A program made the position numbers and the translations under genes. Shown piece by piece: positions 48,201 to 63,113 of a stretch of 64,000 nt of DNA (the first letter of the stretch is position 1; every line of letters begins with the position of its first letter). Source of the DNA: Acidimicrobiia bacterium. GTDB lineage: Bacteria; Actinomycetota; Acidimicrobiia; IMCC26256; PALSA-610. Under the pieces are notes generated by a model that saw nothing but the letters and a program-made list of their open reading frames with translations, searched no databases and was not told the DNA's origin. The stretch is from positions 177 to 64,176 of the forward strand of contig JBBQER010000004.1 of the NCBI GenBank assembly GCA_038320885.1, in the 5' to 3' direction.

Positions 48201-48805
48201 CGCCGCGCTCGCGTGGACTGCGGTTGCGTGGGCTCCCGTTGCGCGGGCTCGGCGATCGGAGCCGGTTCGAGCCTTCGAGCCCTGGCGCCGGGAGCGGGCT
48301 CGCGCTGCAGACGGGCGTCGGCCGAGTCGAGCCAACGGATGACGCTGTCGAGCCGGTAGATCTCGGCGTCGGCCACGAGCGTCAGCGCGAGATCGTCGTC
48401 GGCCGCGTCTTCCTTCAAGCGCGTGTAGCGCTGCATGAGCTCGATCAGATGCCGGCGGTGAGCCTGGACGAGCTCGGAGACGTTCACTCCCGGAACGCGC
48501 AACGCCACGAGCACTTTGATCACCAGCTCGTCGCGCGGCGGCGCCGTGTCGCTGGGGGTGCGGAGCCAGGTCGAAAGCTCCGAGCTCCCCGCGGCCGTGA
48601 TCCGGAAGTGCTTCTGCGGCCCGGGCTCGTCACCGCCGTCGGACTCGACGAAGGTGTCGCGTTCGAGACGTTGGAGCGTCGTGTACACCTGGCCCACGTT
48701 GAGGGGCCACACGTCGCCGGTTCGAGCCTCGAACTCGTCGCGCAGCTGGAGCCCGTACTTGGGCCCCTCGCTCAACAGCGCGAGCAGGGCATGACGCACG
48801 CTCAC
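48197..48805 (-). CDS. PadR family transcriptional regulator
   Basis: VRHALLALL...PKYG.QLR..FE...WPLNVGQVYTTLQRLE, plus C-terminal RDEL..K domain. Confidence 0.92.
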   Translation of the reverse strand: MSVRHALLALLSEGPKYGLQLRDEFEARTGDVWPLNVGQVYTTLQRLERDTFVESDGGDEPGPQKHFRITAAGSSELSTWLRTPSDTAPPRDELVIKVLVALRVPGVNVSELVQAHRRHLIELMQRYTRLKEDAADDDLALTLVADAEIYRLDSVIRWLDSADARLQREPAPGARARRLEPAPIAEPAQREPTQPQSTRARR

Positions 48806-48877
48806 CGGGAGGATCCTGAGAACATACGCAGTATGCTACTCGGTATACCGCGTCTCGTAAACCCCCGGCTCGGGCGG

Positions 48878-49765
48878 TTACCCGAAGCGAACGATCGAGA
48901 GCAAGCCTGCGGCTAGGCAGTAAATGGCGAAGGGCAGGAGGTTGCGGGTCTCGAAGAACCGCATGAGGAACCGGACCGATGCGTAGGCCGCCAGGCCGGC
49001 GAAGACACTCCCGACCAGGGCCTGACTTCGGATCCCGTCGCCGAGGGGGCCGGTGAGGTCGGGGATCTTGTAGACGCCGGCCGCGAAGATGATCGGCGTC
49101 GCCAGGAGGAACGAGAAGCGCGCCGCGTCTTCGTGGTCGAGGCCGCGCAGGAGTCCGGCCACCATCGTGATGCCCGAACGGCTGATGCCCGCGAACAACG
49201 ACCCGATCTGCGCGACGCCCACCGCGCCCGCTTCCTTGAAACCGAGCGTGTCGAGGCGCCGGCCTTCTTCGCTCTCGCTCCGCACCGCCGGATGTTGCGC
49301 GACGAGGTTGCGGACCGCACCTCGGCGGCGAATTCGTTCTCCGCCGAGCAAGATCACGCCGTTGACCGTCAAGAAGATCGCGGCGGCGAGGGGCTTGGCG
49401 AAGAGCGTCCGCAGCGAATGCTCCAGCGCGAGGCCGGTGAGTCCCACGGGGACAGTCGCCACGATCAACAGCCACGCCATGCGTTCGTCCGGCGTCTCGA
49501 GTCGGCGCGTACGCAGCGTGCGCAGGAATCCGCGAATGAGGCGGACCCAGTCTTCCCGGAAGTACACGGTCAGCGCGATCGCGGTCGCGACGTGCAACGC
49601 GACGACGAACGCAAGGTAGAATGACTCACCGGCCGACTGCGCGGTCACGAGGTGATCCCAACCGAGCCAGGCCGGCACCAACACCGAATGGCCCAGGCTC
49701 GAGATCGGGAACAGCTCGGTGACGCCTTGCAACAGGCCGATCACGATGGCCTGGAAGTAGCTCAC
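48878..49765 (-). CDS. uppP: Undecaprenyl-diphosphate phosphatase (BacA/UppP)
   Basis: QGVTELFPISSLGH, GISRSGIT and ARFSFLLATP motifs. Confidence 0.93.
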   Translation of the reverse strand: MSYFQAIVIGLLQGVTELFPISSLGHSVLVPAWLGWDHLVTAQSAGESFYLAFVVALHVATAIALTVYFREDWVRLIRGFLRTLRTRRLETPDERMAWLLIVATVPVGLTGLALEHSLRTLFAKPLAAAIFLTVNGVILLGGERIRRRGAVRNLVAQHPAVRSESEEGRRLDTLGFKEAGAVGVAQIGSLFAGISRSGITMVAGLLRGLDHEDAARFSFLLATPIIFAAGVYKIPDLTGPLGDGIRSQALVGSVFAGLAAYASVRFLMRFFETRNLLPFAIYCLAAGLLSIVRFG

Positions 49766-50013
49766 GCGTGTTCGCCGGTCGGCTTCTCCGAGGACTCGAG
49801 CGCCTCGAGCCGGCGATGGACTCGCAGCGCCCGCCACAACGACGCTCCCAGCGCGCCGGCCACGCAGGCCGGCAGCACCGGCCACGCGTTCCACCCGTTG
49901 TGCGATACGAGCGCGGTGAACGCGACCGCGACAACGACGGCGACCGCGATCGTCCAATCGTCGCCGACGACGAAGTCGTACCAGAATCGTCCGAAGTTCC
50001 CGAGAAATTTCAT
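49762..50013 (-). CDS. Small two-TM membrane protein (FWYDFVVGDDW motif)
   Basis: 83 aa, translationally coupled on both sides (ATGA/GTGA); two hydrophobic segments. Confidence 0.75.
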   Translation of the reverse strand: MKFLGNFGRFWYDFVVGDDWTIAVAVVVAVAFTALVSHNGWNAWPVLPACVAGALGASLWRALRVHRRLEALESSEKPTGEHA

Positions 50014-50750
50014 GTTGCGGCCATCGCGAACGACGCGTCCGCTCGGCGCAGAACTGCGACGAAAGCGAACGACATGGCGACGACGAACGCGATCAACGCG
50101 ATCAATGCCAAGTCTTTCCCCGGCCACGAGACGCCCGCTCCCTCCGCGCTCCAGAAGATTCCGAACGCGGTCAACATCACGCCGACGCCGAACTTCAAGG
50201 TGTTCTCGGGTACGCGCGTGAGCGGACCGTGCACGACGACACCGGCGATCAAGACCATGACCAGCGACGCACCGGCGCCCAGCGCGGCGACTCCGACGTT
50301 GTGCTGCGCTCCGCCGAACGTGACGATGATGAAGGCGACCTCGAGACCTTCGAGAAACACGCCCTTGAAGGCGACGGTGAAGGCGTACCAGTCGAGCCTC
50401 GGACCCTTCTCGCTCGTCCCGAGCAACGCGATCTCGGCCTCGTAGATCGCTTCCTCGTCGTGCAGTGCTTTCAGGCCGCTCGCGCGCAGAATCGCCTTGC
50501 GCAACCACTGCAACCCGAAGATCAACAAGAGCGCGCCGACGGCGACCCGCAGTGAGTCGATCGGAAGCTTCGCTAGCGCGGGACCGAGGGCGCCGATGAT
50601 CGCAGTCAGCCCGCCCAGCGCGGCCGCGATCCCCCACGCTGCCGATCGCCATCCGCGCGTGACCGCGACCGCGAGCACGATCGTGAGCGCCTCGACCATC
50701 TCGACTGCGCACGCCAGGAAGGCGGCGGAAAAGAGCAGGAATGTATGCAT
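50010..50750 (-). CDS. COG4280-type membrane protein (duplicated ExxE motif; Ftr1/LysE-superfamily-like)
   Basis: AVEMVEALTIV and FLEGLEVAFII in two halves, QWLRKAILR and VPENTLKF. Confidence 0.78.
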   Translation of the reverse strand: MHTFLLFSAAFLACAVEMVEALTIVLAVAVTRGWRSAAWGIAAALGGLTAIIGALGPALAKLPIDSLRVAVGALLLIFGLQWLRKAILRASGLKALHDEEAIYEAEIALLGTSEKGPRLDWYAFTVAFKGVFLEGLEVAFIIVTFGGAQHNVGVAALGAGASLVMVLIAGVVVHGPLTRVPENTLKFGVGVMLTAFGIFWSAEGAGVSWPGKDLALIALIAFVVAMSFAFVAVLRRADASFAMAAT

Positions 50751-50792
50751 ATTTGGCGCCTCGGGAGCGGCTTCGTAGCGTACACTACAGGA

Positions 50793-51671
50793 ATGCAGCC
50801 TGAGGTAGCAAGTGCTACCAGCGAGCTCGAGGAGCGGCTGGCCCGCAGCGGGAACCTCGCGCCGGCCGAACGACGGGTCGCCGAGGGCCTGATCGAGTTC
50901 GGGCCGGAGGAGGCACTGCTGTCGGCGGCCGCGCTCGCGGTGCGGCTCGGGACGAGCGACGCAACGGTCGTTCGCACCGCGAAGGCGCTCGGTTACCGCG
51001 GGCTGGCAGATCTCCGCCGCGCGTTGGCTGTCCGCTCCCCCGAACCGCCGCTGGGCGAGCGACTGCGGCGCACGCTCGAGCAGGCGCCATCGGAAGAGAT
51101 CCTCGCGGCCTCCATCGACCGCCACCTCGTGGCGCTCGACGCGCTCAGCCGTGATGTGTCGTCACAACAATTCCAGGAGGCCGTCGCCGTGCTCGCGAGC
51201 AGCCGGCGCGTCGTGTGGCGCGGTGTCGGACCCTCGGCGCATCTCGCGTCGTACGCCGAGATTCTCAGCCAGAGGATCGGCAAGCCGAGCATCGCGCTCG
51301 TCCACACCGGCACGTCGTTCGCCGACGAGCTCCTCGCGGTCGCGCCCGACGACGCGATCGTCGTGTTGGCGTACGGGCGATTCCAGTCACACGTGCGCGT
51401 GCTCCTCGACCGCGCCGCCGAGCTGGGCGCGCCGGTGATCCTGATCACCGACGCGCGTGGTCGGGTGCCCAACGGTGTGCACACAACGCTGCGCTGCGGT
51501 CGGGGTGCACCCGGGCTCTTCGCGAGCCACGGCGTCACACTCGTCGTGATCGAAGCGCTCGTGCTCGCGGTCGCCGCCAGCGACCGCGAGAAGTCAGACG
51601 CCGCCCTCGCCGTTCTGAACGAGCTGCGCGCGGAGCTGGCCGGACGGCGCATCGACGTCGACACGCCGTAG
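50793..51671 (+). CDS. MurR/RpiR family transcriptional regulator (HTH + SIS)
   Basis: L.PAERRVA, GTSDATVVRTAKALGYRG HTH, SIS GVGPS and ILITD. Confidence 0.9.
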   Translation: MQPEVASATSELEERLARSGNLAPAERRVAEGLIEFGPEEALLSAAALAVRLGTSDATVVRTAKALGYRGLADLRRALAVRSPEPPLGERLRRTLEQAPSEEILAASIDRHLVALDALSRDVSSQQFQEAVAVLASSRRVVWRGVGPSAHLASYAEILSQRIGKPSIALVHTGTSFADELLAVAPDDAIVVLAYGRFQSHVRVLLDRAAELGAPVILITDARGRVPNGVHTTLRCGRGAPGLFASHGVTLVVIEALVLAVAASDREKSDAALAVLNELRAELAGRRIDVDTP

Positions 51672-52991
51672 CGGCCCGCTTCGGGCCGGTTGCCTCACGA
51701 CCAGCACCACGAGCGTTGCGACGGTAAGGACCGGGAGACCGACCGTCAGCATTCCGTGGGAAAGTCGTCCGGCCTCGGGGCCAGTCCCCACCTGATACGT
51801 CGCGCAGAGGATCCCGCCGTGCAGCGCGGTGACCACGGCAATGGCGCGGCGAGACGACATCGCAGCAACCGGCATGCTCCACAGCGCGTACCACGGCAAC
51901 ATGTATCCGGCCACGACCGCGTACGAGGCGAGCGTGAGTGCAACCGGCGCGGCGAGGTCGGACGTGTAGCGGTTCCTGCGGCCGACCTCGGCGATGATGA
52001 GCAACGCCGCGACCAGGCCCAGCGTCGAAGCCGCGCCCGACGAAACCAGACCCGGATTCACGACAAGCCGCCACGGCGACGCGCGCGAGATGATGCCGTG
52101 CGTCGCGTGCGCCGCGGCAGTGAACGACGACGGCGCGACGACGAGCGCGATCACCATGAACGCGCTGACACCGGCCGTGAACCGAAGCGCGTCCCGAACG
52201 CGCCGCCGGCCCAGCAGGACCACCACGACGACGGGGAGCGCGAACAGTGCCGCGACCTTGACCAGCGCGGCGAGACCGATGGCCGCCGCCGCACCGAACA
52301 CGCGGTCACGTCGCAACAGCGCCACTGCGGCGACGGCGCCAAGGGCCACGTAGACATCCGCGTGGGCGCCGTTCACGACCGAGACCCACACCATCGGCTG
52401 GAGTCCCACCAGCACCACGACGGCGCGTCGCTTTGTCGTGCGGGCGACGATCCAGACGCATGCGAACATCGTGAGCGCGGCCGGGATCTGGAACGCGAGG
52501 CGCACGATCAGCAGATGCGTGCCGGCGAGCCGGCTGATGACAGCCGCGACGCCGACGAAGAGCGGTCCGTACGCGCTCGGCGTATGCCACCAGCCGCGCC
52601 CGACGAGCCGGACGATCGGATCACCGGCGAATCGGGCGATGATGACGTGGTACGGATTGGCGTGGTAGTGCTCGATCAGCCGGCCGTAGCTCGCGTAGGC
52701 CCACATGTCGTGCGACCCGAGTGGCGCGCGAGCCACGGCAATGACCGCCGGCACCGCCATCGCGGCCCACGGCGTCGCGCGCCCGACATGCAGTGTCTCC
52801 CGGGTACCGACCCAGGTCGCCGCCGCGGTCCCGATCCCGATGAGCACGACGCTCGCGACACCGCGAAGGTTCCCGAGCAGGATGATCGCCGTGCACGCGA
52901 CGGCCACCGCTATCAGGAGCCGTTCGATCGCGCCGTCACCGGGCAACCGCCGAGGCGTGCGCCCCTCTCGCTCGCGCGAGAGGAGACTCAC
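51594..52991 (-). CDS. GT-C glycosyltransferase, MptB/GT87-like (polyprenyl-phosphate-sugar dependent)
   Basis: SHDMWAYASYG, NPY, PSAYGPLF, NGAHAD and LPWY; many TMs. Confidence 0.8.
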   Translation of the reverse strand: MSLLSREREGRTPRRLPGDGAIERLLIAVAVACTAIILLGNLRGVASVVLIGIGTAAATWVGTRETLHVGRATPWAAMAVPAVIAVARAPLGSHDMWAYASYGRLIEHYHANPYHVIIARFAGDPIVRLVGRGWWHTPSAYGPLFVGVAAVISRLAGTHLLIVRLAFQIPAALTMFACVWIVARTTKRRAVVVLVGLQPMVWVSVVNGAHADVYVALGAVAAVALLRRDRVFGAAAAIGLAALVKVAALFALPVVVVVLLGRRRVRDALRFTAGVSAFMVIALVVAPSSFTAAAHATHGIISRASPWRLVVNPGLVSSGAASTLGLVAALLIIAEVGRRNRYTSDLAAPVALTLASYAVVAGYMLPWYALWSMPVAAMSSRRAIAVVTALHGGILCATYQVGTGPEAGRLSHGMLTVGLPVLTVATLVVLVVRQPARSGPLRRVDVDAPSGQLRAQLVQNGEGGV

Positions 52992-55645
52992 AAGTCGCGC
53001 AGCACCGTCACCGGTGCCCGTTGTGCTCGCCGGATCGTCATCATTCCCGCGACCAGAACGGCGGCGATCGCGACTCCCGCGACAACCGCGAGATATCCCC
53101 AGGGCACCGAGAGGGCCGCGGGCGGTGGGTCGAAGACGCCGGTAAGGACTTTGACGAGCATCTCGGCGAGCACCCAGCCGGTGAGTGCACCGGCCGCGAG
53201 ACCGCCGGCGGTGACGAAGGCCGCCTCGCTCCAGACGAACCCACCCAGCTGGCGGGGCTTGGCGCCGAGCGCCGTGGCGATCGCGAACGTGCGGCGCCGT
53301 TCGGCGAAGCCGAGTGCGAGGACGAGACCGGTCGCCGCCGCGGCGAGCGCGAGCGCGAATCCGAGCTCGACTCGCGTGAGGCCCGACAGATCAACGGCGG
53401 TGAGGCTGGTGCCGATGAGCTTGCGCGTCTTGGAAATGTCGGTGACCGATGCCGTGGTGCCGACTTGGCGGCGGATGTTCGCGGCGACGGCCGCCGGCGA
53501 CGAGCCGCCGGTGTCGATCAGGAAGGCGCCGACCGCGTCGCTGCCTGTCTTCTGCGCGATATAGCTCGCGTTCGCCAGCATGAAACTGTCTCTGGGTGCA
53601 GTCGGAAACTCGGTCGCGACGCCGATGTAGCGAAACGGTACTTCGGTGAGTTGCTTGGTGCGGCCGTTCTGGAGGCGCAGGCGCAGGGTGTCGCCGGGCT
53701 GGAGCTGGAAGTCCTTGACAGTCTCGGCGCTCACGAGCACGCCGTTGGGCTCGCGTCCGAGCCGGGCCATGAGCGCGCGGGCGGTACCGCCCTTGAAATA
53801 CGCGTCCTGGAGCTTGGTCGCACCGACGATGGTCGAGGTCCGAACGCCGAACATGTCTTGCAGATCGGCGCCGACGTACGCGTAGCGGTGCTGGAGCGGC
53901 TCGACCGACTTGACGCCCGCCACTGCCGCGAGCTTCGCGCTCGCGGCCGGTCCCACGTTGCTGCCCGGCGGCTCGGTGACGGTGACGTCGTTGCCGTTGG
54001 TGAGCCGCGCGTCGATCTCGGCCTGGGCGCGGTACGTGCTGTTGAACACGGCGGTCGACGCCGCGAACGCGGTGGTGAGCGCGACGAGCACGAGCGCGCC
54101 CGCGAGGAGACGACGCTGCCGGCGCATCGTCGCGCCGACGGTGCTCGCGAGCCGTCCCGAGAACGGGCGCGCCAGCCGGCGCGCGAAGGATCGCCCGGAT
54201 CCGAGCACGAGGTACGCGACCCGCCACGCGAGGAGACCCGCGCCCGACCACAACAGCGCCGGGCCCGCGAGCGCCCAGTAGCTCACCGAGATCGCGGGAG
54301 TGCCTTCCGGCGCGAGGACAAGTTGGTAGCCGTTGCGGCTCGTCAGGCGGAACACAAGGGCGGAGCCGGCGAGGAGCAGGAGATCGAGTCCGAACCGCAG
54401 CCAACGAGGTGCACGGGCGCGGCCGACGACGCGGCGCGCGCCGACGACGGTGAGCGCCCGCGCGTCGCGCCATGCGGGGACGGCCACGGCGAGCCCGGCG
54501 ATGCCGAAGCCGACCGCGGCGGCGCTGACGGCCCAAACGATCGCCGCCCCGGTTGTCGCGCCGAACGACGCGGTGCCGAACGCCCAGGTGCCGACGAGTG
54601 CCGCGGCACCGAGGCCAACCAGCGCGCCGATAGCGCCGACCACTGCGGCTTCGAGGAGCGAGAGGCGCACCAGCGTTGTCGTTGTCGCACCGCGCGTGCG
54701 GAGCAGAGCCTGCTCGCGGCGGCGCCGGTCGGCACCGGATGCGGCAACTGCCGCCGTCAGCAGTCCGGCGAGAACTGCGCCGGGTACACCGAGGAAGAGG
54801 AACACGACCTGCGCGTACAGGCCGTCGCTCCGAGCCGCGGCGAGCGTCGAACCCAAGTTGTCGCCGACCAGACCGGCACCGGCGAGCAGCACTTCGAGAC
54901 TGCGCGCCGAACCGGTTACCCGCGTGTACGCGGCCGCCGGGTCACCGGGCAGCGCGTGTGAGAGGCGGGCGTGCACCTGCATGGTTACCTGATCGGGACG
55001 CGACGCCGCGAGCCGGTCGAACCGCGCGTGCCACGTTGCGGCCGGCAGGAAGACCACGTTGTCGGGCGGCGCGTGCGCCTGGGCGCCGATCGGCGCTCCG
55101 ACCTTCTGGAAGAACGAGTCGGCTTGCGGGACGTCGACGACGCCGTCGATACGCACCCTCGTGGGCGCGAGACCGGCGCGGCCGATCATGACCGTGTCAC
55201 CCGGCGCGACGTGCAGGTTGGCCGCGGTTTGCTGGGCAATGAGCACGCCGAGGGGCGCACCCACGAGGTTCCGGATGACGCCCGGGAAGGTCCGGGAGTA
55301 CGAGACGGGAAGACCGACGACGACGCCCGGTCCGGTGGACTGCGTGGACGCGCCGGTGGTTGCCTGGAGACCCGGCGTCTTCGCGAACTCGACGGGCAGC
55401 GCGCTCGTCGTGCGGGACGAGACGCCGGCGAGCACCTTCGCCGGATCGGCACCCGGTTGCGCCTCGACCTGCCAGTCGACAGACACGTTCTGGACCGCGC
55501 GGCGGGTCATCGTCGCTTTCGACCCGGCGAGGAACGTGCCGATCGAAGCCAGCAACGCCACTGCGATCGCGACGCCGCCCGCGGTCGCGAGGAAACGTCC
55601 GAATCGGCGCGTGATGGCGCCTCGAACCCAGGTCAGGCCGAGCAT
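52988..55645 (-). CDS. Large FtsX-like ABC permease
   Basis: RRREQALLRTRGAT and ERRRTFAIATALGA repeats with two large extracytoplasmic domains. Confidence 0.88.
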   Translation of the reverse strand: MLGLTWVRGAITRRFGRFLATAGGVAIAVALLASIGTFLAGSKATMTRRAVQNVSVDWQVEAQPGADPAKVLAGVSSRTTSALPVEFAKTPGLQATTGASTQSTGPGVVVGLPVSYSRTFPGVIRNLVGAPLGVLIAQQTAANLHVAPGDTVMIGRAGLAPTRVRIDGVVDVPQADSFFQKVGAPIGAQAHAPPDNVVFLPAATWHARFDRLAASRPDQVTMQVHARLSHALPGDPAAAYTRVTGSARSLEVLLAGAGLVGDNLGSTLAAARSDGLYAQVVFLFLGVPGAVLAGLLTAAVAASGADRRRREQALLRTRGATTTTLVRLSLLEAAVVGAIGALVGLGAAALVGTWAFGTASFGATTGAAIVWAVSAAAVGFGIAGLAVAVPAWRDARALTVVGARRVVGRARAPRWLRFGLDLLLLAGSALVFRLTSRNGYQLVLAPEGTPAISVSYWALAGPALLWSGAGLLAWRVAYLVLGSGRSFARRLARPFSGRLASTVGATMRRQRRLLAGALVLVALTTAFAASTAVFNSTYRAQAEIDARLTNGNDVTVTEPPGSNVGPAASAKLAAVAGVKSVEPLQHRYAYVGADLQDMFGVRTSTIVGATKLQDAYFKGGTARALMARLGREPNGVLVSAETVKDFQLQPGDTLRLRLQNGRTKQLTEVPFRYIGVATEFPTAPRDSFMLANASYIAQKTGSDAVGAFLIDTGGSSPAAVAANIRRQVGTTASVTDISKTRKLIGTSLTAVDLSGLTRVELGFALALAAAATGLVLALGFAERRRTFAIATALGAKPRQLGGFVWSEAAFVTAGGLAAGALTGWVLAEMLVKVLTGVFDPPPAALSVPWGYLAVVAGVAIAAVLVAGMMTIRRAQRAPVTVLRDL

Positions 55646-56337
55646 GATTCGGCCTCCGCGGCATCGGGGTCGGCAGGGACGGTGAGGCGACCATCGCTGA
55701 CCGTCCAGCGGCGAACGAGCCGCTCGCCGATATCGGGGTCGTGGGTGCTGATCACGAGGGCGGCGCCCAGCGCGGCCGCGGCCTCGAGGAGCACGTCGAT
55801 CACCACCGCGCCGGTCGTGTGATCGAGCTGCCCGGTCGGTTCGTCGGCGAGCAGCAACTGCGGGCGCTGCGCGAGCGCGCGCGCGATCGCCACTCGCTGG
55901 GCCTGTCCGCCCGACAACTCCTCGGGCAACTTGTCGCCCACGCCGAGCAGGTCGAACCGGTCGAGTGCGTCACGGGCGCGTTCGGTTGCTTCGCTCGGGT
56001 CGACGCCACCGAGAACGAGCGGGAGCGCAACGTTCTCGGTGACGTCGAGCGGCGGAAGCAGGCTGGGGCCCTGCAGGACGAGCGCGATCGGTCCGGGTCG
56101 AAGCGTTGCCCGCTCGCCAAGGGCCGGCCAACTGACTGTGCCCGCGGTCGGGGTATCGAGACCCGCGATCAGGTGCAGCAGGGTCGACTTGCCCGAGCCC
56201 GACGGGCCCATGATCGCGATCTGCTCGCCGGCGCCGATCTCGCACGACAGCCCGTGCAGCGCGACGACGGCCGAGCGTCCCGACCCGTATGTCCGCGCGA
56301 CCTGTTCGCAGCGGACCAATGGTTCCGCGTTCGTCAT
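55633..56337 (-). CDS. LolD-type ABC ATP-binding protein
   Basis: GPSGSGKS, LSGGQAQR, LADEPTGQLD and STHD. Confidence 0.92.
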   Translation of the reverse strand: MTNAEPLVRCEQVARTYGSGRSAVVALHGLSCEIGAGEQIAIMGPSGSGKSTLLHLIAGLDTPTAGTVSWPALGERATLRPGPIALVLQGPSLLPPLDVTENVALPLVLGGVDPSEATERARDALDRFDLLGVGDKLPEELSGGQAQRVAIARALAQRPQLLLADEPTGQLDHTTGAVVIDVLLEAAAALGAALVISTHDPDIGERLVRRWTVSDGRLTVPADPDAAEAESCSA

Positions 56338-56993
56338 TGCACAATCCCGTCACGAAGCGCAATGACGCGATCGGCTTCGTCCGCCAGCGCATCGCTGTGG
56401 GTCACGACGACGACCGCGGTTCCCGCGTGCGCGCGTTCGCGCAGCAGGGTGATGAGGTTCGCGGCGTTGGCGCGGTCGAGCTCGCCGGTCGGCTCGTCGG
56501 CCAACACCACGCTCGGGTTGTTGGCGAGCGCGACGGCAAGGCCGGCGCGCGCGAGCTCGCCACCGGAAAGCTCGGAAGGGTGCGAGCGCGAACGCTGCTC
56601 GATGAAGACTTCGCCCAACAACTCGGCGACCGGTGTCGCCCGACGGTTGGGGGACAGCCGTTGCGCGAGCCGGATGTTCTCGCCGACCGTCAGGTGCTCC
56701 AGGAGGTTCGCGTTCTGGAACAGGACGCCGACGTGTCGCGACCGCATCGACGCCCGCTCCGGTTCTGATCGCCGCGAGAGCGCCTCGCCTTCGATCGTCA
56801 CCATTCCGCCGTCGGGTTCGTCGAGCCCGGCGAGACACGCCATCAAGGTCGACTTCCCGGAGCCGGACGGGCCGGTCACGGCCACGATCTCGCCGCTCTC
56901 GACCGAGATCGAGACCCCGCGCAACGCCAGGGTCTCGTCGTCGCCCGCGTGGTAGAAGCGGTAAAGATCGCGCGCCTCGATCGCGGCGGTCAT
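56334..56993 (-). CDS. LolD-type ABC ATP-binding protein
   Basis: GPSGSGKS, LSGGE, LADEPTGELD and VTHS. Confidence 0.92.
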   Translation of the reverse strand: MTAAIEARDLYRFYHAGDDETLALRGVSISVESGEIVAVTGPSGSGKSTLMACLAGLDEPDGGMVTIEGEALSRRSEPERASMRSRHVGVLFQNANLLEHLTVGENIRLAQRLSPNRRATPVAELLGEVFIEQRSRSHPSELSGGELARAGLAVALANNPSVVLADEPTGELDRANAANLITLLRERAHAGTAVVVVTHSDALADEADRVIALRDGIVQ

Positions 56994-57607
56994 TTCGTCC
57001 ACGTGAACGAGTTGGTGACGGTCTTCCAGGGATCGACGTTGTCGGAGCCGCGCGCGCCCGAGAGCGTCAGTGTGACCAGGGTGCCGCTGCGCCAGAACTC
57101 ATATCGCTCGACGTCGATCGCGACGCGCTTGCCGGTCACGGGGTCGCGCGCCGATCCGGCTCGGTAGGAAACCAAGACCGCCGTCCCCGCCGCGCGCGTG
57201 ACCGTCGCGACCTTGACGAGCTCGAAATTGGGAATGCTGCGACGTAGGCGCGGGACTTCCGTCGTCTGTACACTCGCGGCGGTCGGTGCGGTCACGACGC
57301 GGGTGGCCGTGGCCATGACGCTGTTGTAGTGGTCGGTCAGCGTGACCGAGCTCCCGGCGATCTTGCGGGCCCAGCCCTCGGGGACCTTGATGGAATAGCG
57401 CCCGCCGGGACCGGCGAGGGCGACGTACACCTGCGTGTCGGGGATGTCGCCGGGAGCCACGACCTCGGGCGCGTTCGGATCGACACCGCCCGGAGCCGAC
57501 GTGGTGGTCTTCGCCGAGCTCGCGCCTTTGCCCGACGAGCCGCACCCCGCGGCCAGGAGCGTGAGCCCCACACCGGCCACGACAAGTCTCGCCGTGATGC
57601 GTCGCAT
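56990..57607 (-). CDS. Uncharacterised lipoprotein (possibly PsbP/Mog1-like fold)
   Basis: RBS AGGAG, lipobox AAGC, PGDIPD, YSIKVPEGW and DNVDPW. Confidence 0.8.
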   Translation of the reverse strand: MRRITARLVVAGVGLTLLAAGCGSSGKGASSAKTTTSAPGGVDPNAPEVVAPGDIPDTQVYVALAGPGGRYSIKVPEGWARKIAGSSVTLTDHYNSVMATATRVVTAPTAASVQTTEVPRLRRSIPNFELVKVATVTRAAGTAVLVSYRAGSARDPVTGKRVAIDVERYEFWRSGTLVTLTLSGARGSDNVDPWKTVTNSFTWTK

Positions 57608-57745
57608 CGGGATCTCCTCGGGTCGTGAACCTGACCCGGCGAAGGTAAGGAAACCGCCGGAAGCGAGCGGTTGGCCCGGGGTGAGCGAACGGCAAAACCT
57701 CGTCGGAGGGCGGGCGGCCCCACCCTCCGCTCCTAGCCTCGCGCC

Positions 57746-58432
57746 ATGGCTCCCGCCGTGCTGCTCGTCGAGGACGACCTCACGATCGGACGTTCACTCG
57801 AGCAGGCGCTCACGGCCGAGGGATACCGCGTCACACTCGCGGCCGACGGCGTCGCGGCGCGCGCGGCGTTCACTGCCGACTGTCCCGACCTCGTGTTGCT
57901 CGATCTCGGTCTTCCGGACGCCGACGGGGTCGAGCTCTGCCGTGAGATGCGCGCCGCGAGCCCCGGAAGCTCGATCATCGTGCTCACGGCCCGGCGAGAG
58001 GAAGCAGACATCGTCGTCGGCCTCGACGCCGGCGCCGACGACTACGTCACGAAGCCGTTTCGCCTCGCCGAGCTCCTGGCTCGGGTGCGCGCCCACCTCC
58101 GCGGACCGAAGACGGAGCAAGTATCCGAACGGATCGACGCCGGCGACCTGCACATCGACGTCGCGGCGCGCCGCGCCTGGGTCGGCACCCACGAGCTTGC
58201 ACTCCGGCCGCGCGAGCACGATCTCCTCGTCCTGCTCGCGTCGGAGCCCGGGCGAGTGATCACCCGGGAGCGGATCATGGAGGAGGTCTGGGACGAGCAT
58301 TGGTACGGCTCGACGAAGACCCTCGACGTGCACATCTCGTCGCTGCGGCGCAAGCTCGGCGCGCACCCCGGCCTGGCCGCGCCCAAGATCGTTGCGCTGC
58401 CGCGCGTGGGATACCGGCTCGATGCTCCATGA
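57746..58432 (+). CDS. OmpR-family response regulator
   Basis: LVEDD, LLDLGLPD, GADDYVTKPF and winged-helix TKTLDVHISSLRRKL..VGYRL. Confidence 0.95.
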   Translation: MAPAVLLVEDDLTIGRSLEQALTAEGYRVTLAADGVAARAAFTADCPDLVLLDLGLPDADGVELCREMRAASPGSSIIVLTARREEADIVVGLDAGADDYVTKPFRLAELLARVRAHLRGPKTEQVSERIDAGDLHIDVAARRAWVGTHELALRPREHDLLVLLASEPGRVITRERIMEEVWDEHWYGSTKTLDVHISSLRRKLGAHPGLAAPKIVALPRVGYRLDAP

Positions 58433-59706
58433 GGCGGCGCATCGTCTGGTCGATCGTCGGCGTCTCGGTCGTCGTGCTGCTCGTGCTCGGCATCCCGCTC
58501 GGAATCGCGGTCGGGCGCCTCTACCGGAACGAGGCCGTGTTGCGCCTGGAGCGGGAAGCCAGCGAGACCCGACGCGTCATCAACGTCGCCGAGCTCATCC
58601 GCGGCGACCCCGTCGAACTTCCCAAGGACGGGCCGATCGGCTTCGCGCTGTATTCGAGCGCGGGCAGGAAGATCGCGGGCGTGGGTCCGGCCCGGGCCGA
58701 CGATCCGGTGCGCCGAGCGCTACGCGGCGACGTGCACGACGCGCGCGAAGGTGGGCGCATCGTCGTCGCCATCCCCGTCGACGGCAACGAACGCATTGTC
58801 GGCGCGCTGCGCGCCAGTCGACCCGCCGCGAGCGTCACCGACCGTATCCGCAACGCGTGGCTCCTCATGGTGCTCGCCGCCGGTGTCGCGCTGGCGATCT
58901 CCGGCCTCCTTGCCTGGTGGCAGGCGCGGCGGCTGACTCGTCCCGTCGACGCGCTGGTCGAGTCGGCCGAACGACTCGGCGCCGGAGACTTCTCGGTGCG
59001 CAGCACCCGTTCGGGCCTCAAAGAGCTCGACGAGCTCGGCGCCGCCGTGAACGCAACCGCGCAGCGCCTCGGGGAGCTGCTGTCCCGCGAGCGTGCCTTC
59101 AGCGCCGATGCGTCGCATCAACTGCGGACGCCCATCGCGGGCATTCGGGTCACGGTGGAGAACGCGCTCCTGACGCCGCAGACCGACGCGCGAGCTGCAC
59201 TCCGAGATCTTCTCGATCCCATCGACCGGCTCGAAGCCACCGTCGACGATCTGCTCGATCTGGCGCGCGACACGCACGGCGATCGCACCGAGCTCGACGT
59301 CGCCCGGCTGCTCGACGACCTTGACGCCGAATGGCACGGACGCCTCGCCGCGGCCGCGCGGCCGCTGCGGATCGAGGTCGAACCGCAGCTGTCCCGGCCC
59401 CTGGTGTCGGCGTCCGCGGTTCGCCAGGTTCTCGACGTCATGCTCGCGAATGCGTTCGAGCACGGAGCCGGCTCGGTGACGGTTCGGGCCCGTCGCACGC
59501 CGGGCGCGATCGCGATCGACGTTGCCGACGAAGGCCCCGGTGTCGTCGATACCCGCGCGCCGTTCGAGCGGCGTTCGGGCGACGGTCACGGAATCGGGCT
59601 CGCGTTGGCGCGGGCGCTCGCGGAGGCGGAGGGTGGCCGCGTCGTGCTCGAGCGGCCGGGCCCCGGCCCCGTGTTCTCTCTCTTCGTGCCGATCGAGTCC
59701 AGCTAG
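58429..59706 (+). CDS. Sensor histidine kinase (HAMP-HisKA-HATPase)
   Basis: Two TMs, HAMP, H-box ASHQLRTP, N-box NAFEHG, D-box DEGPG and G-box GIGL. Confidence 0.95.
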   Translation: MRRRIVWSIVGVSVVVLLVLGIPLGIAVGRLYRNEAVLRLEREASETRRVINVAELIRGDPVELPKDGPIGFALYSSAGRKIAGVGPARADDPVRRALRGDVHDAREGGRIVVAIPVDGNERIVGALRASRPAASVTDRIRNAWLLMVLAAGVALAISGLLAWWQARRLTRPVDALVESAERLGAGDFSVRSTRSGLKELDELGAAVNATAQRLGELLSRERAFSADASHQLRTPIAGIRVTVENALLTPQTDARAALRDLLDPIDRLEATVDDLLDLARDTHGDRTELDVARLLDDLDAEWHGRLAAAARPLRIEVEPQLSRPLVSASAVRQVLDVMLANAFEHGAGSVTVRARRTPGAIAIDVADEGPGVVDTRAPFERRSGDGHGIGLALARALAEAEGGRVVLERPGPGPVFSLFVPIESS

Positions 59707-59781
59707 ACCATTCGACGTCTCGGGCTGAGCGAGTGACGAGATCTCGGCCGTGAGCCGTCGCGTCGAGCATGATGGCCTCAG

Positions 59782-61080
59782 ATGAGGTCGCGCACACTGG
59801 TCCTGACCGCGATCCTCTTGGGCTGCGTCGTCGGGCGCGGCGCGTACGTCCTCTACCTCGCGCATTCGGACAAGATCGTGACGACGGTCGGCGATGTCCC
59901 GACGTATCTCGGACCGGCCCACGAATTGCTCGACCACGGCCGCTTCGACAGCGCCGGCCCCCCGCCGGACCAGCCCGAGTTCCTCCGCACCCCGGGCTAT
60001 CCCGTGTTCATCGCCGCGGTGTACCGCGTCTTCGGCGAGAACAACACTGCGGTGCTGCTCGTGCAAGTCGCCCTCAGCGGGCTGACGGTCTTCCTCGCGT
60101 ATCTTCTCGCGGCGCGGATGTGGTCGGCAACCATCGGTGTGCTCGCCGCGTTGTTCACCGCGCTCGACCCGTTGCAGAGTACGACCGCGGCCACGCTCCT
60201 CACCGAGAGCCTCGCCGCGTTGTTGTTGATCATGGTCGCCGCAGTCGCTTTCGCGGCGTTCAGTGAAAAGCGGCCGCGACCCGGGCTCTGGGTGTTGCTC
60301 GGCGTGACCATCGCAGTCGCGACGCTCGTACGACCGGTGACCTACTACCTGCCGCTGCTGGTCGTGCTCCTGCTGCTCGTTCGACACGTGCGACGTCGCG
60401 CTCGATGGCCGGATCTCGCGAAGATGATGGCGGCGTTCATGGTGCCACTCGTGTTGCTCCTCGGCGGTTGGCAGCTGCGCAATCATGAGCGCGTCGACTC
60501 GTGGCGCATCAGCGGGATCGAGGCCAAGAACCTGTACCTGTTCCGCGCCGCGGGGGTTGTCGCCCGCGACTCGCACCGCCCATTCGCCGACACGCAACAC
60601 GAATTGAGGGTCGAGTTCGGGCGGCTCGGCTCCGAGAGCCAGGGTTCGTACTACGGCCGCATGTATCGAACCGGAATTCACATCCTGGCGAAACACCCCG
60701 TCGACGCGGTCATCGGCACCGTCGACGGCTTGTGGAGCGAGCTCTTCAGCGTGAAGCTGAAGATCGTGTCGCATATCGGGCCGGATCCCGATTCACCGGC
60801 CATGAGAGGTGTCGCCATCGTCTTGTTGGTCGGCTTCTACGCGCTCTGCGCGTACGGGATGGTGCTCGTCGTGCGACGCCGGCGAAACCTGTTCGCCCAC
60901 ACGTTCGTCGCAGGCGTCGCGTTCTACGTACTGCTCGCGTCCGCCGGCCCCGAAGCGCTCGGCGCGCGCGGGGAGCGCTTCCGCGCCCCGATCGTGCCCA
61001 TCCTGATCCTCTATGCGGCCGGAGGCGCCTGGGCGCTGTGCACCTCTATCCGTCGGAAGACAGCCGGAGAACGCTCATGA
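59782..61080 (+). CDS. GT-C glycosyltransferase (ArnT/PMT_2-like)
   Basis: D..TY loop, RTPGYP, LLTESL, LVRP and ERFRAP; many TMs. Confidence 0.78.
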   Translation: MRSRTLVLTAILLGCVVGRGAYVLYLAHSDKIVTTVGDVPTYLGPAHELLDHGRFDSAGPPPDQPEFLRTPGYPVFIAAVYRVFGENNTAVLLVQVALSGLTVFLAYLLAARMWSATIGVLAALFTALDPLQSTTAATLLTESLAALLLIMVAAVAFAAFSEKRPRPGLWVLLGVTIAVATLVRPVTYYLPLLVVLLLLVRHVRRRARWPDLAKMMAAFMVPLVLLLGGWQLRNHERVDSWRISGIEAKNLYLFRAAGVVARDSHRPFADTQHELRVEFGRLGSESQGSYYGRMYRTGIHILAKHPVDAVIGTVDGLWSELFSVKLKIVSHIGPDPDSPAMRGVAIVLLVGFYALCAYGMVLVVRRRRNLFAHTFVAGVAFYVLLASAGPEALGARGERFRAPIVPILILYAAGGAWALCTSIRRKTAGERS

Positions 61081-61820
61081 ACGGCACCCTCGCGCACCGG
61101 CACGGTCCGTACCGTCACGAGCACCACCACCATGGTCCCCATCGCCACAAGCCGATGCCATTCCGGTCGCGTGAGCACACCGATCACGAGCAAGAGCACC
61201 ACCACGAACACGGACACACGCACGGCCGCGTCGATCGTTCCATCGTCCGATCCCGCGCCGGCGTGCGAGCCGTTTCGATGAGTCTCGCGATACTCGCGGT
61301 TACCGCGGCGTTGCAGGCGATCGTCTTCGCCATGTCCGGTTCGGTCGCGCTGCTCGCGGACCTGATCCACAACGGAGGCGACGCGCTCACCGCGATCCCG
61401 CTCGGCATCGCCTTCCTGCTCAGAAGCGAACGCGGAGAACGGTGGTCTGGATACGCGGTCGTGCTCACCATCTTGGCCAGCGCCATGATCGCCGCCGGGG
61501 AGGCGGTCGATCGCCTCTTCCACCCCCAGAACCTTCACCACTTGATCCCGCTCGCGATCGCGGGATTGATTGGATTTGCCGGGAACGAGCTCGCTGCCAG
61601 AGTGCGGCTACGAGCCGGGGCCCGGCTGGGCAGTCCGGCGTTGATCGCCGACGGTCATCACGCCCGAGTAGACGGCTTCGTTTCGCTCGGCGTGATCGCA
61701 TCGGCGGCCATGGTCGGGCTGGGCGTGACGGTGGCGGACCCGCTCATCGGGCTCGCGATCACCGCGCTCATCTTGCGGATCACCGGGCAGGCATGGCGCA
61801 CCGTTCGCGCCGGGGCCTAG
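61077..61820 (+). CDS. Cation diffusion facilitator with His-rich N-terminus and no C-terminal domain
   Basis: SGSVALLADLIHNGGD (TM2 HxxxD) and SPALIADGHHARVD (TM5 HxxxD); stops right after TM6. Confidence 0.88.
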   Translation: MNGTLAHRHGPYRHEHHHHGPHRHKPMPFRSREHTDHEQEHHHEHGHTHGRVDRSIVRSRAGVRAVSMSLAILAVTAALQAIVFAMSGSVALLADLIHNGGDALTAIPLGIAFLLRSERGERWSGYAVVLTILASAMIAAGEAVDRLFHPQNLHHLIPLAIAGLIGFAGNELAARVRLRAGARLGSPALIADGHHARVDGFVSLGVIASAAMVGLGVTVADPLIGLAITALILRITGQAWRTVRAGA

Positions 61821-62962
61821 CCGGGCCGCACCGAGAACTGGTATCCGCTCCGGAAGACCGGCTGGAGCTTGACGAAGTCGCCGGTCTGCGTCGCCGAGAT
61901 CGTCATGCCGTCGCCGACGTAGATGCCGACGTGGTGGTGGTCGGCGTAATAGATGGACAGGTCGCCCGGCTCGAGCGCGCCGTCGGGCACTTGCGGGAAC
62001 ATCGATCCTTGCGCACCGGAGTAGTGCGGCATCGACACTCCTCCTTGGGCCCAGGCCATCATCGTCAGTCCGGAGCAATCGAACGAATCGGGCCCGGTGC
62101 CGGCGTATTGATACGGCTTTCCGAGTTGCGCCTTGGCGTACGCGACTGCCGCGGCGGCACCCGCCGACGGTGCCGGGACATCGGGAACGGGCGCGTTGCC
62201 GGGATCGACACCGGGGGTGCCGCTCGTCGCTGAGGGTTCGCTTGCGACACCTTGCGGAGCGACCGTCGTCGACGTCGACGTCGCAATGAGGTGCAGACGC
62301 GCCGCCTCGGCGTCACTGCGCGCCTTCTCGGCCGCGGCCTGCCGCTGCTCTTCCTGCGCGATCAGCGTCGCGATCTCGCCGTTGACCGACGCGAGCAGGT
62401 CAGCCTGCTTCGCGTTGGCGGCTTCGACGTCGCGCTGACTGGCGGCGATCGCGTCGATCTGGCTTTGTGCGCGTTGCTTCGCATCCTCGAGCTCGCTCTT
62501 CTTCACGCGCAGGTCAGCGCGCGCCGCCGAGAGCTGCTCGAGTGACGATCGATCACGATCGGCGGTCGCGGCTCCGTACTCGGAACGGCTGCCGGCCTCT
62601 TTCACACTCGAGACGTCCATCCAGGCGATCGGCGATTGGCTGCCGGCAGTCATGTACAGCGCCGCGGCCCGGCGCTCGACGATCGCGCTGGTGCGCTCGG
62701 TCTCCGCCTGCGCCACCGATATCCGGCTCTCGATTCCCGAGATGCTCCGCGTCACGGCATCGAGCGCGATCTTGGCTCCGTTGTACTGCTCGGCCAGTAT
62801 CGAGATCTTCTCGCCGTTGGCGTCGATCTCGGCCTTCAACTGCCGCGCTTGCGCCACCTTGTCGGCGATCGTCGCACCGGAAGCGAGCGACGGCACGAAC
62901 GCGCCGGCGAGCATCGCGATGCACACGCCCATCAAGGTCATGCGCGCGAATCGTTGCTTCAT
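61817..62962 (-). CDS. Secreted NlpC/P60 (C40) peptidoglycan endopeptidase with coiled coil (RipA/CwlO-like)
   Basis: Signal peptide, coiled coil, QLGKPY..G.GPDSFDCSGL and HHVGIYVG; start may be 62980. Confidence 0.92.
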   Translation of the reverse strand: MKQRFARMTLMGVCIAMLAGAFVPSLASGATIADKVAQARQLKAEIDANGEKISILAEQYNGAKIALDAVTRSISGIESRISVAQAETERTSAIVERRAAALYMTAGSQSPIAWMDVSSVKEAGSRSEYGAATADRDRSSLEQLSAARADLRVKKSELEDAKQRAQSQIDAIAASQRDVEAANAKQADLLASVNGEIATLIAQEEQRQAAAEKARSDAEAARLHLIATSTSTTVAPQGVASEPSATSGTPGVDPGNAPVPDVPAPSAGAAAAVAYAKAQLGKPYQYAGTGPDSFDCSGLTMMAWAQGGVSMPHYSGAQGSMFPQVPDGALEPGDLSIYYADHHHVGIYVGDGMTISATQTGDFVKLQPVFRSGYQFSVRPG

Positions 62963-63113
62963 GGGGACTCCCGTGGACATGGTCCGGGTCGGGTCCTTGC
63001 GGAGCGCTGGTTCGCGCAAGTGGCTAGCTGCGGGCGCGCGTCGAACGAGCCCGTGTGAGATTGGATCCTACGACACTAGGTCGTCGCGATCTGGAATGCG
63101 ACTCGACGCGACG

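Follow-up and report, generated by a model that had tools for sequence, protein, structure and literature searches.

What is the function of a lipoprotein and an ATP-binding cassette (ABC) transporter with two ATPases that are encoded back to back with a two-component system? The question is raised by positions 48,878 to 61,820 of a 64,000-nucleotide stretch of an Acidimicrobiia bacterium (GCA_038320885.1, contig JBBQER010000004.1; the whole stretch is hereafter called the window), a region of about 66–74% G+C. An initial annotation, made from the sequence alone, had read this region as one signal-induced system that couples lipid-carrier recycling, surface glycosylation and cation handling. 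We find that the 13 kb as described are not one fixed cluster. What is widely conserved as a unit is a core of six genes—an OmpR-type response regulator, its kinase, the lipoprotein, two ATPases and an FtsX-type permease—together with a repeat in the divergent promoter region. Elsewhere this core, which we call the module, is joined to genes for UppP, PAP2, DedA and GT-C glycosyltransferases, often in the same operon. We put at about an even chance the explanation that the module is a signal-induced guard of the polyprenyl-phosphate carrier cycle, that is, a carrier-stress response. Full-text literature searches, which leave most subscription journals uncovered, returned no description of such a module, in agreement with the earlier statement that no characterised pathway with this layout was known. 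The core and its operator are arranged as follows:

52988-55645, minus strand: 885-aa FtsX permease (PF02687 in two stretches, 82.5 bits, cut-off 25.5)
55633-56337, minus strand: ABC ATPase B (ABC_tran)
56334-57002, minus strand: ABC ATPase A, LolD/MacB/FtsE-like (ABC_tran)
56990-57607, minus strand: 205-aa lipoprotein (no Pfam family)
57680..57696, minus strand: operator TTTGCCGTTCGCTCACC, a TTTRCC-N6-TNACC direct repeat
57746-58432, plus strand: OmpR/PhoB-family response regulator (Response_reg plus Trans_reg_C)
58429-59706, plus strand: sensor histidine kinase (HAMP, HisKA, HATPase_c)

These assignments come from open reading frame (ORF) calls followed by Pfam and NCBIfam profile scans, with internal start codons picked from the translations and profile matches; all genes named by the annotation, including those outside the core, are present where it had placed them. 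Its minus-strand run holds as well: lipoprotein and ATPase A (a junction that was read directly in the sequence), ATPase A and ATPase B, ATPase B and permease, and permease and a GT87-like GT-C gene overlap by 4–13 nt each. The run is divergent, across 138 bp, from the regulator and kinase genes, which overlap by 4 nt. A promoter and terminator scan of 47500-63500 was uninformative, with promoter-like sites numbering 0 (0.8 in shuffles) and terminator-like sites 6 (6.2 in shuffles). One sediment-metagenome DNA run contains the stretch, and no RNA run is among the sequencing runs listed.

How widely is this arrangement kept? With the lipoprotein as anchor, 13 of 41 related genomes gave a match at E <= 0.001, nine of them strong, including the window's own genome (G000, 89% complete), and at all nine fetched loci regulator and kinase are divergent from lipoprotein, ATPase A, ATPase B and permease as far as the contig permits. 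A homologue search with the lipoprotein returned 3032 proteins, and a wider scan, restricted to one genome per species, yielded at least 589 confirmed loci; the best 80 of these, numbered here with L, were studied in detail and come from Acidimicrobiia, Streptomyces, Pseudonocardia, Amycolatopsis, Actinomadura, Actinotalea, Solirubrobacterales and others. Lipoprotein, ATPase A, ATPase B and permease follow one another in this order at 60/60 loci with room for all four, the lipoprotein gene always being the first of the operon. Both cognate regulator and kinase lie nearby at 38 of the 49 loci with at least 2.3 kb on each side: both upstream in 21, the kinase upstream and the regulator downstream in 12, and both downstream in five. 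At the remaining 11 loci, we found one sensor gene only (three loci) or neither at the thresholds used (eight loci). That the partnership of sensor and transporter is kept through three gene orders argues for a functional link rather than an inherited gene order. At the level of the phylum the module is widespread but patchy, the lipoprotein being present in 21 of 401 sampled genomes and 19 of 249 genera (a count that includes the window genome and the unpublished genome G251). One complete module, with 48–67% identity to the window proteins, sits in a record titled uncultured Burkholderiales (L039, CAZJSY010000001.1), which may be mis-binned or mislabelled.

The intergenic region between the divergent operons holds the second conserved element. 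In an alignment of 18 loci that are otherwise divergent here, the direct repeat TTTRCC-N6-TNACC is conserved, as are two TAnnnT hexamers, one about 32 nt downstream of the repeat towards the lipoprotein gene and another just ahead of the regulator start. In the window, the half-sites of TTTGCCGTTCGCTCACC are spaced 11 bp apart. The repeat sits ahead of both divergent genes, 72 nt from the lipoprotein start and 50 nt from the regulator start, and the window contains no second exact copy. Among 37 divergent intergenic regions, the repeat is exact in 20 and present with at most one mismatch in 30, compared to averages of 0.015 and 0.335 in shuffled controls; the 19 regions that had not been used to define the pattern contribute four exact copies and 12 within one mismatch. 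A scan of the best 80 loci (1.25 Mb, both strands) returned 41 exact copies, 32 of which lie 70–250 nt upstream of the lipoprotein gene and on its strand. The operator is thus conserved in sequence and position, and the module's own regulator would presumably bind it. Genome-wide, G000 has three exact copies, against two for a reversed control; the two copies other than that of the module were set aside as chance matches, as they fall inside an SDR gene and a PNPOx-like gene.

The other nine exact copies at the best 80 loci all lie between picked ORFs, 45–360 nt upstream of the downstream ORF, with one of them (L043, at 5865) facing the opposite way. Four stand ahead of DUF347 genes: two in L043, one in L092, where the operator-bearing DUF347 gene heads an operon that runs into the lipoprotein gene, and one in L037, where it heads a DUF347-UppP operon. 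The remaining copies precede a GT87 gene (L027), an LPG_synthase_TM-like gene (L033) and, in L053, genes for UbiA, an esterase and an unnamed 400-aa ORF.

Which genes, then, does the module recruit? We Pfam-scanned the two ORFs nearest to the module on each side at 69 loci in all (104 downstream ORFs from 54 loci and 123 upstream ORFs from 62 loci, 227 proximal ORFs together) and compared them with a distal control from the same loci, namely 150 of 198 ORFs at least 6 kb upstream or at least 4.5 kb downstream:

PAP2: proximal 7/227, distal 0/150
BacA/UppP: proximal 3/227, distal 0/150
DedA (VTT): proximal 5/227, distal 1/150
DUF347: proximal 9/227, distal 1/150
YNCE propeller: proximal 8/227, distal 0/150

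BacA, PAP2 and DedA together account for 15/227 proximal and 1/150 distal ORFs (Fisher p = 0.003, a value that overstates the enrichment, the loci being related) and occur within two ORFs of the module at 14/69 loci; UppP lies within 10 kb of it at 7/80. Several of these neighbours are operonic. UppP follows the permease after a 35-nt gap and is itself followed by GT87 in L025, and stands behind regulator and kinase in L030 and L033. Similarly, PAP2 stands behind regulator and kinase in L038 and L039 and 8 nt behind the kinase in L065, DedA precedes regulator and kinase in L042, PAP2 and DUF347 lead into the lipoprotein operon in L092, and PAP2 followed by DedA is divergent from the lipoprotein gene in L041. 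The PAP2 neighbours score best against undecaprenyl-diphosphatases (SepP, PRK11837) and PgpB, and the DedA neighbours against DedA and UptA. MurT, GatD-like proteins, class A beta-lactamase, BlaI with an M48 peptidase, polysaccharide deacetylase and GT2 also recur. The link to carrier recycling and glycosylation that the annotation had drawn finds support in module operons of other genomes; in the window itself, uppP belongs to a separate cassette.

GT-C genes of the GT87 type come after the permease or UppP in L025, L030, L031 and L033 and after the kinase in L018 (the same as L026). A secreted, YncE-like seven-bladed propeller, absent from the window, often comes after the permease or GT87 (L030, L031, L032, which equals L020, L033, L037, L056, L081, L085, L103 and L021, where it is fused to Kelch repeats); these propellers weakly match an 'MmpL3/TtfA stabilizer' model. 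A DUF347 gene was not found in G000, but a control matched none of 14 genomes and the genome is 89% complete, so that absence is not shown.

What kind of machine does the core encode? A transmembrane (TM) scan and the predicted structure give the permease about 10 TM helices; one large extracytoplasmic domain is inserted between TM1-2 and another between TM7-8. The model (predicted local distance difference test, pLDDT, 82.3) shows alpha/beta outer domains at residues 58-262 and 554-749, and its best Foldseek match is E. coli YbbP (9ge6_A, E 2.7e-21 over 928 columns at 17% identity, with 9ge7_A also at the top). LolE (9.4e-11) and BceB (3.0e-10) came behind, MacB scored far lower than YbbP, and the outer domains match isolated periplasmic domains of LolC, LolE and MacB (5udf, 6f3z, 5naa, 3ftj). 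By sequence, a search of the PDB with the permease alone gave no match, and one with the permease profile only YtrF (E 0.017) and HrtB (E 0.099). Going by the model, the permease is a type VII ABC protein of YbbP architecture, a fold that would be compatible with mechanotransmission, i.e. work done outside the membrane without transport across it. ATPase B is a distinct paralogue, 35–41% identical to ATPase A in cross-hits. Walker A, Q-loop, LSGGE signature, Walker B with the catalytic Glu and H-loop are conserved in both (76 A and 74 B sequences); with all motifs intact, the two would form a heterodimer with two competent sites, and the idea of a degenerate site was dropped since both retain every motif. 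Of the NCBIfam models, LolD (TIGR02211) scores highest for both ATPases, with 181.8 and 184.6 bits that stay under its cut-off of 307.75.

The lipoprotein carries its lipobox cysteine at position 22, at least 90% conserved within L-x-A-C, followed by an invariant GDIPDxQ in a disordered tether of low model confidence and by a GSDNVDPW motif near the C terminus. Its model (pLDDT 84.2) is a PsbP/Mog1 alpha/beta sandwich. In Foldseek it matched PsbP (2xb3, E 3.9e-6), LpqN (6e5d, 1.3e-4) and DcrB (6e8a, 3.6e-3), with a probability of 1.00 and a target-normalised TM-score of up to 0.71 against PsbP structures. The Pfam PsbP family is not reached by the window protein; one homologue has PF01789, and one source labels its copy 'PsbP-related'. 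A PDB search with the lipoprotein profile gave only a chance nanobody match. This protein would be the partner of the permease. Complex predictions of permease segments 1-405 and 484-885 with lipoprotein residues 40-205 scored 0.20 and 0.25 against a mark of 0.32 and count neither way.

As for the sensor proteins, the regulator reaches no NCBIfam equivalog (best MtrA, 201.5 bits against a cut-off of 300), and its orthologues adjoin the ABC operon in related loci. The kinase has TM segments at 9-27 and about 140-164 with an outer loop of about 110 aa between them, in which an alignment of 50 kinases reveals a conserved DPxELP motif. An Atlas search with this loop returned only unnamed clusters at 0.90 and weak sCache/CusS leads. 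PmrB-like metal sensing through an ExxE motif of the loop was considered and dropped, as the EASE in question is conserved in the closest relatives only.

How does the module relate to known systems? It combines a YbbP architecture with a Bce-like sensor coupling, yet fails the defining features of both families. In E. coli YbbAP-TesA, periplasmic domains are inserted into a set of 10 TM helices between TM1-2 and between TM7-8; the complex has two YbbA subunits and passes membrane lipids to a single periplasmic partner (PMC12646458). The module resembles this complex (PDB 9GE6-9GE8) in its modelled 10-TM topology, TM1-2 and TM7-8 outer domains and TM5-6 linker, and in having the gene of a presumed extracytoplasmic partner next to the transporter genes. 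It differs by its 17% identity, by having, wherever the locus is long enough (60/60), two distinct ATPase genes as compared to one YbbA gene, by a partner that would be a PsbP-fold lipoprotein instead of an SGNH hydrolase, by a dedicated two-component system and operator, and by its monoderm actinobacterial host; a GDSL-like lipase is found downstream in L070 only. There (7991-9472), a YceI-like gene and the lipase gene lie just downstream of the permease, which recalls the TesA partner of YbbAP.

Bce modules pair a type VII ABC transporter with a two-component system and are described as a feature of Firmicutes (PMC11009047); BceAB-BceS senses and resists antibiotics that sequester undecaprenyl-pyrophosphate (UPP) (PMC12646458). 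The likeness extends to a type VII 10-TM transporter that is genetically tied to an OmpR-type two-component system (38/49 loci) and to UPP, with BceAB reported in that source to act on UPP-antibiotic complexes and UppP or PAP2 sharing operons with the module in relatives. In contrast, BceB has one outer domain (TM7-TM8) and the module permease two, BceS is without an outer domain while the loop of about 110 aa in the module kinase is conserved, and Bce has one ATPase gene and no lipoprotein. LolCDE shares the fold of the outer domains (Foldseek E 9.4e-11 to 1e-7), and its LolD provides the best, albeit sub-cut-off, NCBIfam model for both ATPases; LolC and LolE, however, are separate 4-TM proteins with one ATPase gene, whereas the module permease is a single fused protein, and LolCDE, with LolA and LolB as partners, serves an outer membrane, a structure not known from these organisms. 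The bacitracin loci bcrABD and BacRS-BcrABC follow the same logic as the module, bringing together a sensor, an ABC transporter and a phosphatase of undecaprenyl pyrophosphate (C55-PP), but their transporters belong to the ABC-2 type rather than to FtsX/type VII and are not known to have a lipoprotein partner. An actinobacterial link of a two-component system with a 10-TM FtsX transporter against a lipid II-binding peptide exists in the nisin-resistance loci of Corynebacterium, which also contain an S41 peptidase; there, the permeases are without large outer domains, no TM helix is predicted for the kinases, and the loci have one ATPase and no lipoprotein (PMC8003753). Finally, the DUF347-UppP pair of L037, which carries the module operator, is also the gene pair of the UppP-DUF347 operons of Frankia that are reported as lead-induced; the available portion of that report proposes metal precipitation and mentions no ABC transporter, lipoprotein or two-component system (PMC4531530).

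Together, the accessory genes recruited to module operons and to the operator lead us to propose the polyprenyl-(pyro)phosphate carrier cycle as the module's business. In a carrier-stress response, the kinase with its outer loop of about 110 aa would phosphorylate the OmpR-type regulator, which would bind TTTRCC-N6-TNACC, a site whose centre precedes the inferred lipoprotein-operon start by roughly 45–60 bp, and switch on this operon and probably the regulator's own genes too. The products would be a tethered PsbP-fold lipoprotein, an ATPase heterodimer and a 10-TM YbbP-type permease with two MacB/LolC-like outer domains. By analogy to other type VII ABC systems, this machine would act on the outer face of the membrane rather than move a solute across it; it could extract or unmask an outer-leaflet carrier lipid to which, for instance, an antibiotic has bound, and the lipoprotein would be its extracytoplasmic partner, while the regulon would raise dephosphorylation, return and use of the carrier. 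Antibiotics that bind the carrier would be the likeliest trigger. The cargo in the window would comprise the GT87-like GT-C inside the ABC operon and probably also a PMT_2-type GT-C and a cation diffusion facilitator (CDF) behind the kinase.

A bolder version of this explanation makes the module the Bce counterpart of Actinomycetota: independently built on a YbbP scaffold, it would free or extract the polyprenyl-(pyro)phosphate carrier with the help of the PsbP-fold lipoprotein, against antibiotics or metals, and its own two-component system would co-induce UppP/PAP2, DedA flippases, DUF347 and GT-C enzymes via the shared operator. We hold this version only tentatively and would sooner expect it to be wrong in some part than right. 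If it is true, the lipid-carrier cycle would gain two new participants, DUF347 and the PsbP-fold lipoprotein, type VII ABC systems would gain a third type of partner (a PsbP-fold lipoprotein alongside a heterodimeric ATPase pair), and DUF347 and YncE-like propellers would receive their first functional context. Actinomycetota make many antibiotics that hit the lipid II/undecaprenyl-phosphate cycle, and their own sensing and resistance are known mainly from a few model systems. Conserved as it is, and with a defined operator and a regulon legible in genome sequences, the module would provide this phylum with a testable candidate for the function of the Bce modules, the textbook machines for sensing and protection; its culturable carriers include Streptomyces, Amycolatopsis, Pseudonocardia and Actinotalea.

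Several observations weigh against a carrier-stress response. Most modules have no carrier-cycle gene nearby (14/69 do), and the uppP of the window lies outside the module operon and without an operator, even when two mismatches are allowed. All PAP2 and DedA assignments are under curated cut-offs, the ORFs of the compared loci were called by a crude custom script based on a GC3-minus-GC2 score, and the best 80 loci are phylogenetically related, so that Fisher tests overstate the enrichment. The kinase has an outer loop of its own, unlike Bce kinases, and sensing through the transporter is thus not implied. Lastly, CDF and OFeT_1-like neighbours point to metals, and DUF347, the commonest accessory gene, is linked in the Frankia report to lead and zinc, not antibiotics (PMC4531530).

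What, then, are the genes on either side of the core? They were listed by the annotation as parts of the same system:

48878-49765, minus strand: uppP (444.9 bits to NF001395, cut-off 394; PF02673 240.2 bits)
49762-50013, minus strand: 83-aa single-TM protein (ORF call)
50010-50750, minus strand: 246-aa OFeT_1/GDT1-like membrane protein with two ExxE motifs (PF16955 23.9 bits, cut-off 26.9)
50793-51671, plus strand: RpiR/MurR-family regulator (HTH_6 plus SIS)
51594-52991, minus strand: GT87-like GT-C (PF09594 25.1 bits, cut-off 25)
59782-61080, plus strand: PMT_2/ArnT-like GT-C (PMT_2 56.8 bits)
61077-61820, plus strand: His-rich CDF cation exporter (Cation_efflux; TIGR01297 89.4 bits, cut-off 82.35)

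RpiR, the OFeT_1-like gene, the 83-aa gene and uppP form a cassette of their own, which in this genome happens to be next to the module. The minus-strand run had been thought to continue after RpiR as a coupled triplet; the triplet exists, its three genes joined by 4-nt overlaps, but it has its own divergent promoter region, and RpiR is on the plus strand, divergent from the triplet and convergent with the GT87-like gene. If both reach their stop codons, the convergent RpiR and GT87-like genes share 78 nt at their 3′ ends (51594-51671). The 42-bp gap between the OFeT_1-like gene and RpiR (50751-50792) contains a palindrome-like GTAGCGTACACTAC, a candidate RpiR operator. The 83-aa gene accompanies the OFeT_1-like gene at 28/29 order-level loci (the 29th being cut by the contig end) and at 11 of 18 loci at the level of the phylum. 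Among the 29, RpiR is alongside the pair in 11, UppP follows in three, all of one genus, and a GT87-like gene is nearby in five. No RpiR was found near the module by tblastn in the best 80 loci; a Streptomyces locus (L101) has an unrelated HTH_6 plus SIS regulator upstream of the module. The OFeT_1-like/83-aa pair is found close to the module in L071, L102 and L190.

'COG4280-type' is a weak, family-level label for the OFeT_1-like protein: PF16955 stays under its cut-off, and Atlas OFeT_1/GDT1 clusters, 73–86% of whose members carry OFeT_1, match it at 0.98. Going by these matches, it is a putative divalent-cation permease. UppP is one of two copies in G000, the second (62% identical) lying on contig C53 (locus L191, 1122-6205), where it is the first of a same-strand row that continues with a 284-aa ORF without Pfam match and with the genes of an OmpR-type regulator and of a kinase. 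A BlaI (Penicillinase_R)/M48 peptidase pair is transcribed divergently from this row; the same pair adjoins the module in L096. In a genome of another family (G140, contig C3, 225000-244900; L168), a stretch of 10 kb without the lipoprotein module contains an OFeT_1-like/83-aa pair, a UppP (66% identical), an orthologue of the PMT_2 GT-C (52%) and a fragment of UppP; these genes also cluster among themselves.

Of the two glycosyltransferases, the first had been called MptB-like. It is a GT-C enzyme of the GT87 type, with PF09594 barely at cut-off, and its gene start overlaps the permease stop by 4 nt. MptB-like is a weak label at the level of the family, as the MptA and MptB equivalogs stay far under their cut-offs: TIGR03459 scores 45.5 bits against a cut-off of 439.4 and MptB 22.8 against 40. 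The PMT_2 GT-C gene starts 75 nt after the kinase stop codon with no terminator-like site in the gap, and overlaps the CDF gene by 4 nt; judged from position, it is possibly read through from the sensor operon. The CDF protein has a very His-rich N-terminal extension of about 60 aa, and its profile match covers profile positions 3-192 of 285, which implies that the C-terminal cytoplasmic domain is lacking.

Could the module respond to metals instead? The main rival explanation, which we consider unlikely but by no means negligible, is an envelope response to divalent metals of the Pb/Zn type, in which the kinase would sense the metal, C55-PP phosphatases would release metal-precipitating phosphate, the DUF347, CDF and OFeT_1-like transporters would join in, and the ABC transporter and lipoprotein would handle metal-damaged or metal-bound parts of the envelope. 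Surface precipitation of metal by phosphate from a C55-PP phosphatase has been proposed for PbrB. DUF347 is the most frequent accessory gene (9/227 proximal ORFs), stands downstream of 4/9 non-canonical operator sites and is once paired with UppP. In Frankia, Furnholm and Tisa report three paralogous UppP-DUF347 operons to be up under lead stress and propose a role in export and precipitation, which is a proposal from expression data (PMC4531530); a later review repeats it, and our literature searches on DUF347 and Frankia, with most subscription journals outside their coverage, returned only this lead proposal. CDF genes at the module in the window, L054 and L061, OFeT_1-like genes at the window, L071, L102 and L190, a P-type ATPase with a ZIP transporter in L019 (the same as L031) and ArsR-type regulators in L084 and L095 are in line with a metal response, although metal transporters are common genes. 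The sensor loop, however, has no family-wide conserved His, Cys or ExxE motif (EASE occurs in the closest relatives only), and the DedA, GT-C, UbiA, MurT/GatD, beta-lactamase and BlaI/BlaR neighbours fit cell-wall chemistry better. If a metal response were nevertheless the answer, the module would define a new metal-stress pathway that uses carrier-lipid phosphatases.

Alternatively, the module may serve housekeeping envelope assembly, an explanation that ranks third and that we judge rather unlikely. Here, the YbbP-type transporter would extract a lipid, glycolipid or lipoprotein from the outer leaflet, which the PsbP-fold lipoprotein would then take over and carry to the wall zone, similar to Lol or YbbAP-TesA, with the two-component system only tuning its level. 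YbbP as the closest fold, the LolC/LolE-like outer domains, the invariable first position of the lipoprotein in the operon, the frequent GT-C and YNCE neighbours and the PsbP/Mog1-fold structures of LpqN and DcrB, which by their entry titles were deposited as envelope-biogenesis proteins, are compatible with such a role. Yet a distribution in about 5% of sampled species and 13/41 relatives (9 strong) is unlike that of an essential assembly pathway, the dedicated sensor and operator suggest an induced response, and operons with UppP, PAP2 and DedA would be left unexplained. Improbable to our minds is the original proposal that everything between 48878 and 61820 belongs to a single system under common regulation in this organism, with RpiR, the uppP-containing OFeT_1-like triplet, the second GT-C and the CDF among its members. 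The genes are contiguous in the window, UppP, GT-C, CDF and OFeT_1-like genes are all found again in the module neighbourhoods of certain other genomes, and in G140 the OFeT_1-like/83-aa pair, UppP and the PMT_2 GT-C orthologue share 10 kb. Nevertheless, there is no operator outside the core promoter, even with two mismatches near the outer genes; RpiR goes with the OFeT_1-like pair, not with the module; this pair has UppP or RpiR within 1.5 kb at 0/18 loci phylum-wide; and orthologues of the PMT_2 GT-C adjoin a CDF or kinase gene at 0/9 loci. Of the single system, what stands is the two-component system, lipoprotein, ATPases and permease with their operator, whereas the layout of the window is not conserved.

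Beyond the region in question, the window contains further genes. One at 61817-63019 on the minus strand encodes an NlpC/P60 endopeptidase (RipC-like, 99.3 bits against a cut-off of 425) whose N-terminal half is long and Ala/Glu-rich; the 3′ end of this gene runs convergently into the CDF stop codon, with 4 nt in common. An FtsEX-like control of this hydrolase by the neighbouring transporter was dropped, since tblastn gave no NlpC/P60 homologue in the best 80 loci. On the other side, adjoining uppP, a second and unrelated PadR/ATPase/FtsX system occupies 44965-48805 on the minus strand, outside the finding: PadR at 48197-48805, an ABC ATPase at 47469-48335 (whose true start is more internal) and, at 44965-47577, a permease of 870 aa that has two FtsX stretches and spans the membrane with about 10 TM segments. 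This system was not found near the lipoprotein module in the best 80 loci. It recalls the PadR/ADOP pairing of Acidobacteria, with TIGR03433 at 30.6 bits, far under its cut-off of 101.8. At 63114-63998 on the minus strand, finally, an ORF with repetitive Asn/Gly-rich sequence runs past the window end and may, judging from these repeats, encode a right-handed beta-helix.

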